Source: Bdellovibrionales bacterium (GTDB taxonomy: Bacteria; Bdellovibrionota; UBA1018). From it: a stretch of DNA of 64,000 nucleotides. Positions 23,728 through 28,662 of this stretch are shown here, one piece after another. The notes under the pieces are model-generated. The model was not told where the DNA came from, made no database searches, and saw nothing but the letters and a program-made list of their open reading frames with translations. The position numbers and the translations under genes were made by a program. Position 1 is the stretch's first letter. The number at the start of each line of letters is the position of its first letter. The stretch is taken from assembly GCA_947380295.1 (NCBI GenBank), contig CANCQK010000009.1, positions 37,460 through 101,459 of the forward strand, in the 5' to 3' direction.

Positions 23728-24431
23728 TAATTAGCTCCTTTGGCTCGCTCCGGCCGAGTGGCCGTATCGAAGTCTGAAAGTTTTTCAACCATTCTGGATA
23801 CGATCCGGTTTTCGGGTTGAATGAATTGAGCCTTTTTGTAGTAATCCAGCGCCTGCTTATAGTCTTTTTGGAGGTAGTAAGTGTTTGCTAGCAGGATGTA
23901 GAGCGTGGGAATGCCCGTGAAACGAGTGATTAAGGTTTTTAGGAGATTTTGCCCTTCAGTATATTCTTTTTTCATCAGTAACTTTTGGGACTCAGCTACG
24001 CCCTGAGCAATATCGTTGAGTTGATTGTCTTGGAGTTGGCAAGTTTGAGCGATTTTGAGTTCTTTGAGGTGGATGGAGAGCTTGGAGTTAGGGCCAAGGT
24101 TGTTACTGGGAATGATGAGAAGCTCGGGTGTGTAGCCGTCCTTAGTAAACTCAATCTGAGCATTGTTCATGAACACCTCAGGGTGCTCAGCGCTTTTGAT
24201 GTTCAGTGGAGTTTTCCCGAGTGAAATGGGAGACTCTCCTGGGCGGATTAAGGACATTTCTGCGGCTACTGGGTCAGAATCGAAACGGACCTGAGAGGTG
24301 GAGCAGGCTGAGACCATTAATGTCATTCCTGCAATCCAGACCCAACCGGATTCTCGCAGTGCAGAGGTTCTCTGCGGTGTTTTCGCCAGAGATTTCTTTT
24401 CCCGATTGATTTTGGGGGTAATTGACATCAT
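23727..24431 (-). CDS. TPR-repeat lipoprotein co-transcribed with the motA/motB-like pair
   Basis: It has a lipobox (LMVSAC) after the signal segment and C-terminal TPR-like repeats (LLANTYYLQKDYKQALDYYKKAQ). Its stop overlaps the motA-like start by 1 bp. Confidence 0.6.
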   Translation of the reverse strand: MMSITPKINREKKSLAKTPQRTSALRESGWVWIAGMTLMVSACSTSQVRFDSDPVAAEMSLIRPGESPISLGKTPLNIKSAEHPEVFMNNAQIEFTKDGYTPELLIIPSNNLGPNSKLSIHLKELKIAQTCQLQDNQLNDIAQGVAESQKLLMKKEYTEGQNLLKTLITRFTGIPTLYILLANTYYLQKDYKQALDYYKKAQFIQPENRIVSRMVEKLSDFDTATRPERAKGAN

Positions 24432-24637
24432 TTCTTCTGCTCTCCCGTTATGGGACTTGTCGACCCATTTAAGGTTGTTCTTTAGTTATTTTACCCGAAT
24501 TTTGACTCAGTCTTGATCGTGATTGGTGCCAGGAGTTTGACTGGGGTGAGTTCGTAGAAAATCGGGACTAGAAATTGGGTGCAGTTTAGGGTAGATGTGG
24601 GGTTTCTTAGAAAATTTTGAAATAAGGATTTTGAGTT

Positions 24638-24850
24638 ATGACAACAGAAACACAAACCCAGGCAGCAGGTCAGCAAAACAAAGGCGCTCAATTGAATGCT
24701 CGACGCAAAAAGAAAGCTGAAGGTCGCAAAAAGCGCGTCCTCAAGTTGCAATCAGACCGCGCTGTGGCTAAAACTTACTTTGACAGCAAAGCTAAGCGTG
24801 CTGCTGACAAAAAATCAGCTTTCCGCAAGAAAAAGACCAGAAAGAAGTAA
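24638..24850 (+). CDS. small lysine-rich basic protein (histone H1/Hc1-like composition)
   Basis: 70 aa, very K/R/A-rich (e.g. RRKKKAEGRKKRVLK... and KKSAFRKKKTRKK). A good RBS (taaggatt) sits upstream. It lies 3 nt before the next gene. Confidence 0.5.
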   Translation: MTTETQTQAAGQQNKGAQLNARRKKKAEGRKKRVLKLQSDRAVAKTYFDSKAKRAADKKSAFRKKKTRKK

Positions 24851-24853
24851 TTC

Positions 24854-25390
24854 ATGCGCTTAAATGAGGCTGCAGAGTCCTTGGCCAAGTGGGTGGCAGG
24901 ACCCTTAGCTAAAAAGGTACCTTCGAAGTATCGGGATACTTTTTACCTCAGGGCGTTTGGGCTGCTTAAGGTCCCAGTTCTTTTTTTCATCTCCCCGTCG
25001 GTGATGGAGCTTTCAGAAGCGCGGTGCGTGGTGAAGGTCCCTCTGAACAAGAGGACCAAGAACCACCTCAACTCCATGTATTTTGGGGTACTCGCCGCTG
25101 GCGCAGACTGCGCGGGCGGCTTGATCGCGATGCGTCAAATTCAAGAAGAAGGCAATTTGGTCTCCTTAGTTTTTAAGGACTTCCAGGCCAGCTTTCTGAA
25201 ACGTGCTGAAGGCGATGTGCTTTTTACCTGCGAAGATGGCGAAGCCATCCGTAAGCTAGTCCAAAAGGCAACCGAGTCAGGTGAACGTGAAAATATGCCT
25301 GTCCGCGTAACAGCCACGGTACCTTCTAAGCTGGGCTCCGAACCAGTGGCCGAATTTACCCTGACTCTTTCGCTAAAGCGTAAAAAATAG
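24854..25390 (+). CDS. DUF4442-like (hotdog/thioesterase-fold) protein
   Basis: 178 aa. The motif pattern (...YFGVLAAGADCAGGLIAM...LFTCEDGEAIRKL...) resembles DUF4442. I assigned it from memory. Confidence 0.45.
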   Translation: MRLNEAAESLAKWVAGPLAKKVPSKYRDTFYLRAFGLLKVPVLFFISPSVMELSEARCVVKVPLNKRTKNHLNSMYFGVLAAGADCAGGLIAMRQIQEEGNLVSLVFKDFQASFLKRAEGDVLFTCEDGEAIRKLVQKATESGERENMPVRVTATVPSKLGSEPVAEFTLTLSLKRKK

Positions 25391-25418
25391 CTTCTTTTAA
25401 CAGGGATTAAGAAAACAA

Positions 25419-25449
25419 AGGGCTCCGGCAAAACCGGGGCCTTTTTTTT
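25419..25449 (+). terminator. rho-independent terminator
   Basis: gggctccgg-caaaa-ccggggcc is followed by T8. It sits immediately after the 24854..25390 gene. Confidence 0.75.
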
Positions 25450-25532
25450 GCCCAAATTGTCCAGAGTGAAGGAAAATGCTGTGGATCTCTAAAGATTTGG
25501 ATCCCGCGCCGCTCCGTCAAACTTATCCAAAC

Positions 25533-26198
25533 CTATCCACATAGCAATTGGTGTTGACTTCCTGTTTCCACGATGCTGGTTACAAAAACCGGATATACCG
25601 ATCTTCGCAGAGCCGTCATCTCCGCAGGCGTAATTTCCCGAAGAGCTTTCGGTACTGGATTTAAATTCATTGCAGCATTCAGGTCTCGGTCCATCGTGAG
25701 GCCACACTCACACCTGTAGGTCCGTTCGGATAAGCTCAGAGCTTCCTTCACGTCTCCGCAGCTACTGCATTTTTTAGAGGATGGGAAAAAGCGTGGATGA
25801 ATCATGACTGCAGCCCCTCGCCACTCAGCTTTATAGGTCAGTTGCCTACGAAACTCTCCCAGGCCCACATAGAATGAGTCGTGAGATTTACCCTTCTTTT
25901 TGAATCTGGGTTTGCCGCCCAGCTTTTTAAAAAATCGCTTCCAAGCACCTTGTAAGTCCAAAAAGGGCTGCTGAGATGCATACTTGGTGACCTCGTAGGT
26001 CCAGGGAAACTCAGATTCCTTGATCGCGTTGAATTGCTTTTTGAGAGCCATACCCGAGGGCTTCTGGCCAGACTTGAACTGCTGATCCCACTCCGCCAAT
26101 CCCCAATTCCATGCAAAACGAGCCACACCACAGGCCTTTTTGAAGTAGGTCATCTGGGTGTTGTTGGCTTTCAATTTGATTTTGTGGGCGATTTGCAT
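25533..26198 (-). mobile_element. tnpB: IS200/IS605-family tnpB (OrfB) with an in-frame internal deletion; degenerate, and predicted nuclease-dead
   Basis: The N-terminus (KIKLKANNTQ...ACGVARFAWNWGLAEW...GKPRFKKKGKSHDSFYV) matches the TnpB N-terminus up to the FPKFKKKG block. It then joins directly to the C-terminus (GLGEFRRQLTYKAEW...SSKKCSSCG...YRCECGLTMDRDLNAAMNL), which is the zinc finger plus RuvC-III. The roughly 170 aa covering RuvC-I/II are absent. Confidence 0.75.
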
Positions 26199-26512
26199 AA
26201 AGAGTTTTGCTTGGTCAGTTAAAGTCTCAACCTGCGAAAAACTAACTCCGCAAAAAACTAAAAGCAAGCGCCTCTCAGGAGACGTCCCACTTAATTTGCG
26301 ACTTTTTTGCGAAGTGTCCGACTTTCGGTCGCTCCATCACAATTGCTCTCTTTTGGACCGCTTTATATGGCGCTGGGTTAACATAATATTCGTCGATCTT
26401 AGGTCCCAACCAGAGCTCTGCTCAAAACTTACTCATTTTGATCAATTTTAGATAGGTTTAGATAGGTTTTATAGGAACTGTTTCTAACCCCAAAAGCATT
26501 TTCTGAAGCGCT

Positions 26513-27136
26513 TTATTTGGGGAGTCTCGCTAGAAAGTCGTCCCTCGAAATTACTTTTGCGCCCAACTTTTCCATATGCGGAGTCATCACTTGAATATCC
26601 ATCCAAGTCAGTCCCTGGGCTTGAAGGAACTTAACGAGATGGAGAAGGGCGATCTTCGAGGCATTGGGAGCCCGATGAAACATGCTCTCTGCGGAGAAGA
26701 CGCCGTTTACGAGCACGCCATAGATTCCACCCATGAGAGTCTGATCCTGCCACACCTCAACGCTGTGGGCGTAGCCGAGTTCATGAAACCGGGAGTATGC
26801 CCTGAGCATCTCTGGAGTAATCCAAGTCCCCTCCTGGCCAGGCCGAGGGGCGTCTGCGCAGGCGAGGATGACTTGTTGAAACGCTCGGTTTAAGGTGAGA
26901 CGAAATAGGGTCGTTCGGATCGCCTTCTTGAGCGAGCGAGGGATGTGAATCTGACCGAATTCAAGAATCGCACGCTCGGGCGGACAAAACCAGGCGAGTG
27001 GAAGCCCATCGATTGGCCAGGGGAAAAGTCCTGATCGATAAGCAAGGAGAAGGCTTTCTGGTTCAAGGTCTCCTCCTAGGGCAACAATTCCTTCAGGTGT
27101 CGATTCGCGGGGGTCTGGAAATCTCAGGATAGCCAT
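26513..27136 (-). CDS. aat: leucyl/phenylalanyl-tRNA--protein transferase
   Basis: GGDLEPESLLLAYRSGLFPWP...EGTWITPEMLRAYSRFHELGYAHSVEVW...GGIYGV...SAESMFHRAPNASKIALL aligns with E. coli Aat. I chose the start at Met28 of the ORF so that it does not overlap otsA. Confidence 0.88.
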   Translation of the reverse strand: MAILRFPDPRESTPEGIVALGGDLEPESLLLAYRSGLFPWPIDGLPLAWFCPPERAILEFGQIHIPRSLKKAIRTTLFRLTLNRAFQQVILACADAPRPGQEGTWITPEMLRAYSRFHELGYAHSVEVWQDQTLMGGIYGVLVNGVFSAESMFHRAPNASKIALLHLVKFLQAQGLTWMDIQVMTPHMEKLGAKVISRDDFLARLPK

Positions 27137-27144
27137 TTTCGTTT

Positions 27145-28662
27145 TTAGCTCGCTTGAGCCAGAGTACTGGGCGTTGCTGGGCCTGTCAATAGTGCCCGGA
27201 TCTGAAGAGTTGCCCAATGAAACGCATTTTGCGATTGAATTTTCTCTTTCATTGCCAGCATCCGTCGGGCTCGCTCAGCCACCGGCAGCTCGATCGCAGT
27301 TGCAATTGAATCAGCCAGTTCTTCGATGGAGTAGGGGTTAATGATTAGTGCCTCCGTGAGTTCCCGACTCGCACCGGTGAACTTACTCAGAATCAGAGCC
27401 CCTCGTTCGGCGGCCTGGCACCAGACATACTCCTTCGCGACGAGATTCATTCCATCGTGGAGGGAGGTCACCAAACAAAGATCACCCATTTGATAGAAAT
27501 ACTGGATCTCGCCCCATTCGTGGTGTTCAGGGAGAAATACAATGGGTTGATAGCTTTCGGATCCAAAACGCGTATTCACTCGTTCCACTGCTTGATGGAG
27601 TTGATCCGAGAGTGCACGGTAAGCAGGAATATGGGTTCTGCTCGGCGAACCCATCTGAACTAGACTGAGACGCCCTCGATAGTGAGGGTATTTTTCGAGA
27701 AGACGTTCAATGGCCTCGACCCTCTCTACGAGTCCCTTCGTGTAGTCGAGGCGATCGACTCCCACTGCGACAATCTCGGCTTGAATGCCATACCTAGCTT
27801 TCAGTTGATGGATTTCCTGCTGATTGAGCGTCCGGACGGGTGACGGATCAATTCCGATGGGAAATGCACGGATCAATGTCTCATGCTGATCCATCGTGAC
27901 TGAGAACTTTTCCCAGTCAATGCGAGCCTCTAAATATCGATTACAAGTCTCTAGAAAATTATTACAGTGATACTGGGTATGAAACCCGATGACATCTGAG
28001 CCTAGCATTCCGTGGAGGAGCTCTTGGTTCCATGGGCAAATTCCAAAAGTCTCGGGATTAGGCCAAGGAATATGCCAAAAGAGTCCTACCCGGGGTCTTT
28101 GAGTGGCTGCAGAGAATCGTCGCTTGAGGAATCGCGGCAAGAGGGCGAAGTGATAGTCTTGAATCAGGATGAGGGAGTTTTTTCCTGAACTTTCAGGTGG
28201 AAGTGCCCATGCAAAGCGTTGATTCACTGCTTGATAATGTTCCCAATCGGAGAGTCGAAAGATGGGTCTAGTGTGGGCTAGGTGACAAAGAGGCCAGAGA
28301 CCTTCGTTGGCAAAACCGTAATAGTAGCCTAACTCTTCTTCTCGGGAGAGAGCAACCCGCCTCAGCGTGTAGGTGGGGTGAGAGGGTGGGACCTGAATTT
28401 CGCCGCGTTCATTTGCAGTTTCAAAGTCAGCGCTACCACTAGCGTGAGCAATCCAAAGCCCTCCGAATTGCCGGAGGATCGGTTCTAACGCAGTCACGAG
28501 TCCGCTTGCGGGACGAATGACCTCGATCTGTTCGCCGCGTCGTTGATGAATGTACGGTTCACGATTTGAGATCACGATGAGTTTGTGGTCTTGCATGCTC
28601 TCTCGCAATGAGCGCAGCCACGGCAATTCGTCAGGGCGTGTTGGGTTTTCATGGTGTTTCAT
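27145..28662 (-). CDS. otsA: alpha,alpha-trehalose-phosphate synthase (GT20)
   Basis: 505 aa. It has GT20 signatures including ...GFFLHIPWP-type motifs (FWHIPWPNPE) and VGVDRLDYTKG. Confidence 0.85.
   Translation of the reverse strand: MKHHENPTRPDELPWLRSLRESMQDHKLIVISNREPYIHQRRGEQIEVIRPASGLVTALEPILRQFGGLWIAHASGSADFETANERGEIQVPPSHPTYTLRRVALSREEELGYYYGFANEGLWPLCHLAHTRPIFRLSDWEHYQAVNQRFAWALPPESSGKNSLILIQDYHFALLPRFLKRRFSAATQRPRVGLFWHIPWPNPETFGICPWNQELLHGMLGSDVIGFHTQYHCNNFLETCNRYLEARIDWEKFSVTMDQHETLIRAFPIGIDPSPVRTLNQQEIHQLKARYGIQAEIVAVGVDRLDYTKGLVERVEAIERLLEKYPHYRGRLSLVQMGSPSRTHIPAYRALSDQLHQAVERVNTRFGSESYQPIVFLPEHHEWGEIQYFYQMGDLCLVTSLHDGMNLVAKEYVWCQAAERGALILSKFTGASRELTEALIINPYSIEELADSIATAIELPVAERARRMLAMKEKIQSQNAFHWATLQIRALLTGPATPSTLAQAS

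Follow-up and report, generated by a model that had tools for sequence, protein, structure and literature searches.

The window analysed here, the whole 64-kb stretch of a contig from a Bdellovibrionales bacterium (CANCQK010000009.1), carries a 983-bp element between a DUF4442 gene and the aat gene (25509..26491, minus strand), which appears to be a non-autonomous remnant of an IS607-family transposon. Domain matches, profile matches and alignments identified an open reading frame (ORF) within it as a tnpB remnant (25533..26198, minus strand), encoding 221 aa from an ATG, or 244 aa from an alternative upstream TTG (25533..26267, minus strand). An initial annotation had proposed a 222-aa TnpB remnant with an in-frame internal deletion at this position; the length did not hold, but the ORF itself and the deletion did, as seen in the Pfam and NCBIfam matches, a single-gap alignment and the DNA comparison given below. 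In the 244-aa form, Pfam detected HTH_OrfB_IS605 (PF12323) at aa 24-69 (E 9e-12) and Cas12f1-like_TNB (PF07282) at aa 137-202 (E 2.4e-21), and the central OrfB_IS605 domain (PF01385) was not matched, whereas it lies at aa 160-275 of the TnpB of L004, a relative from an Oligoflexia metagenome-assembled genome (MAG) that served as reference for the full-length element. The NCBIfam profile guided_TnpB matched the remnant in two pieces with about 200 profile positions skipped, and the join leads from IS200_TnpB positions 3-109 directly to guided_TnpB positions 317-386. Alignment with full-length homologues gave one clean gap. Retained are the N-terminal REC and helix-turn-helix (HTH) region (as a whole 60-79% identical to full-length homologues), the RuvC tail, the zinc-finger TNB domain with its CSSC...CEC motif (CxxC...CxC), the RuvC-III motif DRDLN and the C-terminal tail. 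The Asp of VGVDLG and the Glu of IGIEEL (D180 and E264 in L004 numbering) are lost, leaving the DRDLN Asp as the sole residue of the catalytic triad, in agreement with the initial statement that the RuvC-I Asp and RuvC-II Glu are gone and that no active nuclease can result. Of 2252 protein homologues, the best 120 were with few exceptions full-length (358-389 aa, ~60% identity), and none of these 120 showed the two-piece architecture; exact-protein look-ups of the 221-aa and 244-aa forms returned no record. The protein that matched the N-terminal part best (P0099, L001 170-751; identity 79%) also stems from a shortened tnpB, with 193 aa and a premature end within the RuvC-I region, and is another decayed copy of the same lineage.

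The extent of the loss could be defined on the DNA level, using close relatives sought by a scan of one genome per species. L004 encodes a TnpB of 395 aa and is ~89-91% identical to the window in DNA; compared with it, the window lacks exactly 522 bp, equal to 174 codons (aa 113-286). The junction (25863..25868, minus strand) consists of one copy of a 6-bp GTGGGC repeat that bordered the lost segment. Its left edge is retained in the sister copy L003 as TATGTGGGC|GGAGATCAG, which continues with GGAG past the repeat, and its right edge in L004 and in the metagenome copy L083 as GACGTGGGC|CTGGGG, while the window reads TATGTGGGC|CTGG. A loss bounded in this way would be the signature of slippage or illegitimate recombination. 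Both GTGGGC repeats encode Val-Gly in the same codon phase, and the reading frame was kept for this reason. A random deletion keeps the frame one time in three. The tnpB of L003 carries a different, frameshifting deletion of 293 bp, and that of L083 a third one of 117 bp, in frame and between GACCTAYA repeats, together with an inverted duplication. Two of these three independent deletions are thus in frame (window, L083) and one is not (L003), a split that fits chance. With a one-in-three expectation, two repeats in the same phase and sister deletions of both kinds, the initial view that an in-frame deletion is unusual for decay is no longer tenable.

To place the loss in a known structure, L004 TnpB was aligned to ISDra2 TnpB (residues 7-354 to residues 9-369; PDB 8BF8, 8EXA, 8H1J; E 2e-60), and this alignment, which had been suggested initially as a check, identified the deleted block as the equivalent of ISDra2 N124-G299. 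ISDra2 TnpB consists of WED (1-12 and 117-176), REC (13-116), RuvC (185-326 and 360-375) and TNB (327-359), with D191, E278 and D361 as catalytic residues, and its omega-RNA scaffold docks on the surface formed by WED and RuvC (PMC10097598). Mapped on this structure, the window protein keeps REC, the RuvC tail, TNB and the third Asp; gone are the WED barrel, the RNA-binding surface, the greater part of the RNase H fold and two of the three catalytic residues. As predicted from sequence, the 221-aa product could not be a RuvC nuclease, and it is probably best read as a pseudogene product without RNA-guided activity.

The limits of the element follow from copies at unrelated sites. L003 belongs to a Bacteriovoracaceae MAG, which also contains L016 and L054, and is 96% identical to the window over 26492-25863 and 25835-25509, with unrelated flanks; similarity to L004, L008 and L083 also ends at 25509, and the flanks differ among all copies. 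Since these copies begin and stop matching at the same points, the element is 25509-26491. The left end (26422..26491, minus strand) starts with GGGGTTAGAAACAG, has a terminal GGGG (26491-26488) and shares homology with the left-end sequence that precedes tnpA in L004, which reads GGGGTAGAAACAG...AAACTTATCTAAAC...TTGATGGATAAGTT. It contains two tandem subterminal repeats AAACCTATCT (26450-26469, minus strand), part of the inverted repeat I1, and a remnant of the tnpA start, ATGAGTAAGTTTTGA (26422-26436, minus strand), in which four codons survive. At the right end the subterminal repeats, read directly, are AAACTTATCC AAACCTATCC (25519..25538, plus strand), inverted relative to the left end, and the element finishes with ...GACGGAGCGG (GAGCGG, that is ...GCGG) at 25509. 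GG is present at both termini, and the flanks TTTT| and |CGCG are not duplicated, so that there is no target duplication; an empty site would be expected to read ...GCTTTTGG(GG)CGCGGGATCC... The search for insertion-sequence ends, also proposed initially, was thus successful on both sides. This combination of GG termini and a GG target with subterminal repeats and no target duplication has been described for the IS607 family (PMC6188088).

The same assignment emerges from the transposase of the full-length relative. In L004 a 212-aa tnpA overlaps the start of the 395-aa tnpB, and its product combines MerR HTH and Resolvase domains and scores 219.8 bits against NF033518 (IS607 family transposase; cutoff 110). 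This serine recombinase with an N-terminal MerR-type HTH is present in L004 and absent in the window copy, where a spacer of ~220 nt (26199..26421, minus strand), 98.3% identical to L003 and missing in L004, stands in the place of tnpA. A tblastn search of the spacer with L004 TnpA gave only E 0.19 and E 1.2, too weak to claim a remnant, and no tnpA of any type, no second tnpB and no second omega-RNA scaffold were found in the 64-kb window. The element is accordingly best assigned by these features to the IS607 family, and a tnpA missing here but carried by L004 points to the window copy being a non-autonomous derivative. The initial annotation was right that no tnpA lies nearby but expected a Y1 enzyme; Y1 tnpA was rejected as the missing partner on the grounds of the L004 recombinase. 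The spacer itself showed an uneven divergence: window and L003 (9780-10003) differ at 5 of 294 positions, and the synonymous sites of the adjoining tnpB N-terminal part at 16 of 64 (dS, the synonymous divergence, 0.30); either the spacer is constrained or the copies are gene-conversion mosaics. It contains a 44-codon ORF (26275..26409, minus strand) with no Pfam match, and just past this ORF a hairpin (26269-26284, minus strand), in which three differences between window and L003 seem, by eye only, to preserve a stem, although with its register shifted.

The tnpA-less left end and the spacer are shared by the window and L003 at unrelated sites, which implies that this form moved before the two copies diverged, without a tnpA of its own. 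Between the two copies the ratio of non-synonymous to synonymous substitution rates (dN/dS) was 0.02 in the N-terminal and 0.20 in the C-terminal part of tnpB. When the changes were polarised with L004, six synonymous and four non-synonymous ones fell to the window copy, and 14 and two to the frameshifted L003. As the certainly dead L003 has an even lower dN/dS, the low values were inherited from intact ancestors; they record the history before the deletion and lend no support to the mini-protein. L016 1661-1791 is a solo 3' fragment with the last 130 nt of the element and a 10-nt internal loss between GGATA repeats, its recovery being biased by the search pattern EITPAEMT, which falls within the 3' region and favours 3' fragments. 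In L054 (6870-6967) the similarity to the element has an abrupt start, at the position corresponding to window 25698, and extends as far as the contig end; this may be a second 5'-truncated 3' fragment; contigs L008, L054 and L162 break inside the element. A metagenome scan yielded L083 as the single close copy, the remaining matches being at most 63% identical. The tnpB segment that encodes IEDLHVKGMERNSKLARAISDVG is present at the start of L083 (1-180) as a perfect inverted duplication of 80 nt, which could be a real rearrangement or an assembly artefact of the contig end.

Across copies, the 3'-terminal ~190 nt of the element have an identity of 94-99%, at a coding difference of ~10% from L004, and identity in this region remains at 77% in L002, where the tnpB protein reaches only 64%; more distant relatives of the region were detected with nhmmer downstream of other tnpB genes. 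An alignment of 13 sequences gave a consensus of 24 pairs with compensatory changes in 17 of them; 96% of the cells pair, compared with 30-47% when partners are slid by one to three columns, and the observed covariation score was reached by none of 500 shuffles. An independent covariance model, built from nine distant sequences only, had a single match in the 64-kb window (25505-25660, minus strand; full length, 115 bits, E 4e-24), and the window sequence forms all 24 consensus pairs. A single-sequence fold of 25510-25700 was uninformative (z -0.3), so that the structure emerged from comparative analysis only. Judged by this model, a complete omega-RNA-like scaffold is present at 25509..25660 (minus strand). 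It overlaps the final ~40 codons of the ORF and extends to the right end, where it finishes with ...GAGCGG, similar to the scaffold of Clostridium botulinum IS607 (CboIS607), which ends with ...UCGG at its right end (10.1101/2023.11.20.567912). The flanks of the copies diverge immediately past ...GAGCGG, and the adjoining host sequence (25489..25508, minus strand; 5'-CGCGGGAUCCAAAUCUUUAG) is, by position only, the putative guide.

An omega RNA had been sought initially in 25391-25532. A conserved scaffold does exist, and the flank 25391-25508 is host DNA. The strong hairpin at 25419-25449 named as a candidate is the terminator of the DUF4442 gene (25417..25449, plus strand; hairpin 25417-25445 with a 12-bp stem followed by U8; -19.7 kcal/mol, z -2.6), which falls outside the element boundary at 25509, and the ggatc/gatcc hairpin folds no better than shuffled sequence (z -0.6 to -0.7). 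The proposed covariance check gave a positive result with our own model, but an Rfam scan of 24000-28000 (E<=10) detected no omega-RNA or intron family, only weak terminator-like noise at ~25350-25510.

On the host side, the element is adjoined by the DUF4442 gene (24854-25390, plus strand), which encodes a hotdog-fold protein and starts 3 nt past a lysine/arginine-rich 70-aa ORF (24638-24850, plus strand) with no family match. This pair is conserved as a unit in L161, L162 and other related contigs and is unrelated to the transposon. L161, whose DUF4442 protein is 89% identical, carries the pair without the element, and therefore what had been called an unusual small-gene pair (24638-25390) is ordinary host DNA. 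Contig L162 of an independent assembly (Logan, ERR10482437; present in three samples) is 100% identical over positions 1-908 to window 24630-25537; it spans the junction between host and right end, confirming the insertion, and stops 29 nt inside the right end, just past the subterminal repeats, a break pattern that suggests several element copies in that sample. An exact-protein look-up of the aat product returned no record.

From the deletion bounded by repeats, the intact ends, the independently broken sister copies and the history of substitutions, the locus is very probably a recently decayed, non-autonomous IS607-family copy in a Bdellovibrionota-like genome, with tnpB as a pseudogene. 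In the ancestral element, the left end would have been followed by a tnpA for a serine recombinase, by tnpB and by an omega RNA that extended to the right end. Loss of tnpA would have come first, followed by a spread of the tnpA-less form to new sites, presumably moved in trans, and slippage or illegitimate recombination between the two GTGGGC repeats would then have taken 522 bp of tnpB, with the frame kept by chance. Several points weigh against this explanation. The remnant ORF is open throughout, without stop codons or further frameshifts, and the four lineage-specific amino-acid changes of the window copy are all at variable positions, so that, from sequence alone, residual selection on the mini-protein would be compatible with the data. 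The deletion junction is spanned by no independent assembly, L162 reaching the host/right-end junction only, and L161 was rejected as a clean empty site, as its gene order differs on the aat side. The census of copies covers 64 kb of the source genome, the sequence available to us here. Finally, neither the two ends nor the omega-RNA scaffold show any damage in sequence or predicted structure, and because of this the element as a whole may not be inert.

This last point leads to the alternative that survives best, namely that the copy, though dead as a carrier of genes, continues to transpose non-autonomously: the TnpA of another copy would act on its ends, and its omega RNA would be loaded by a full-length TnpB elsewhere, which would cut the empty site after excision and so protect the copy. 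We regard this as possible but rather unlikely, and it is compatible with the explanation given above for the protein. It agrees with the intact ends and the 24 of 24 omega-RNA pairs, with the tnpA-less architecture at two unrelated sites (window and L003), with the break of L162 within the right end, a hint of additional copies in that sample, and with the conservation of the 3' 190 nt (94-99% across copies) compared with the ~10% coding difference from L004. Against it stand the lack of a tnpA or a second tnpB in the 64-kb window and of any sigma-70-like promoter in a scan of 25300-26600; moreover, loading in trans is putative for this family, and the search pattern biases how often 3' fragments appear to survive. 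The more specific idea that this protein-dead copy is still a working part of the transposon population, with an omega RNA whose guide matches its own insertion site and which is loaded in trans by a full-length TnpB, we consider doubtful; if true, RNA-guided homing would keep protein-dead copies in the genome. In a less likely variant, the mini-protein with its motif-reading REC region and zinc finger would interfere with full-length TnpB.

That the 221-aa protein is a selected, miniaturised nuclease-dead TnpB acting as an RNA-guided gene regulator like TldR, as the initial annotation had suggested, is very improbable. Its ORF is unbroken and keeps the frame, the zinc finger is retained together with the REC region, which contacts the transposon-adjacent motif (TAM), and the scaffold adjoins the ORF, but the deleted WED and RuvC parts are those that bind omega RNA in ISDra2 (PMC10097598). 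TldRs keep the fold and the RNA interface, have no transposon ends and occur in conserved new gene contexts (10.1101/2023.11.30.569447), whereas here the deletion took the WED barrel and most of RuvC, both ends have been preserved, and L161 has the neighbouring gene pair with no element. Nor is the inactivation conserved in a clade: the closest copies are full-length or differently deleted, one of them by a frameshift, the architecture was not seen among the best 120 homologues, and the 'guide' is a mere insertion flank. Equally hard to credit is a deletion produced by assembly at a locus with a full-length tnpB, for although the element is repeated in related genomes, three contigs break inside it and no second assembly crosses the junction, the sequence shared by both sides of the junction, only 6-7 nt, is much shorter than the k-mers of assemblers, which makes an assembly collapse unlikely, and similar microhomology deletions arose independently in L003 and L083.

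The proper annotation is therefore a degenerate IS607-family element with a tnpB pseudogene and not a candidate miniature RNA-guided regulator, a correction that matters little beyond annotation itself. It carries the caution that an in-frame deletion, an intact ORF and a low dN/dS mimic domestication, and recent decay explains all three. The copies also document, on a small scale and within a single IS607 lineage of Bdellovibrionota, a natural series of microhomology deletions, with both genes already broken at a stage when the ends and the omega-RNA scaffold remain intact.

Among known systems, the element is most readily compared with the IS607 family (IS607, IS1535 and the Clostridium botulinum IS607/IStron), with which it shares GG termini, ~10-bp inverted subterminal repeats and the absence of a target duplication (PMC6188088), an omega RNA past tnpB with a scaffold ending ...CGG at the right end (10.1101/2023.11.20.567912) and, in L004, a MerR-HTH serine-recombinase tnpA overlapping the tnpB start. 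It differs in that the window copy has lost tnpA except for four codons, and 174 codons of tnpB, and contains no group I intron (no Rfam match in 24000-28000); its TnpB fits the IS200/IS605 TnpB model with a higher score than the IS607 one, both scores being below the curated cut-offs. ISDra2 TnpB of the IS200/IS605 family has the same domain order and DED triad as L004 TnpB, whereas the window protein lacks the equivalent of 124-299 (WED barrel, RuvC-I and RuvC-II), and the partner transposase of the window family is a serine recombinase and not Y1. With TldRs the window copy has in common a TnpB derivative without a working RuvC site beside a guide-RNA-like scaffold. TldRs have become inactive through point mutations and through truncation at the C-terminus, where the zinc finger tends to be lost, and form conserved clades with new gene partners (10.1101/2023.11.30.569447); the window copy, in contrast, has its core deleted, the C-terminus kept, the ends intact and a deletion that is unique to it. 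A further parallel in form is found in non-autonomous derivatives of TnpB transposons, both tnpB-only elements and end-only PATEs, which likewise keep the ends, have lost the transposase and occur in the same tnpA-less form at different sites. Unlike PATE-type end-only elements, the window copy still has a large part of tnpB and the complete omega-RNA scaffold, and therefore represents decay at an intermediate stage and not a minimal end-only element.

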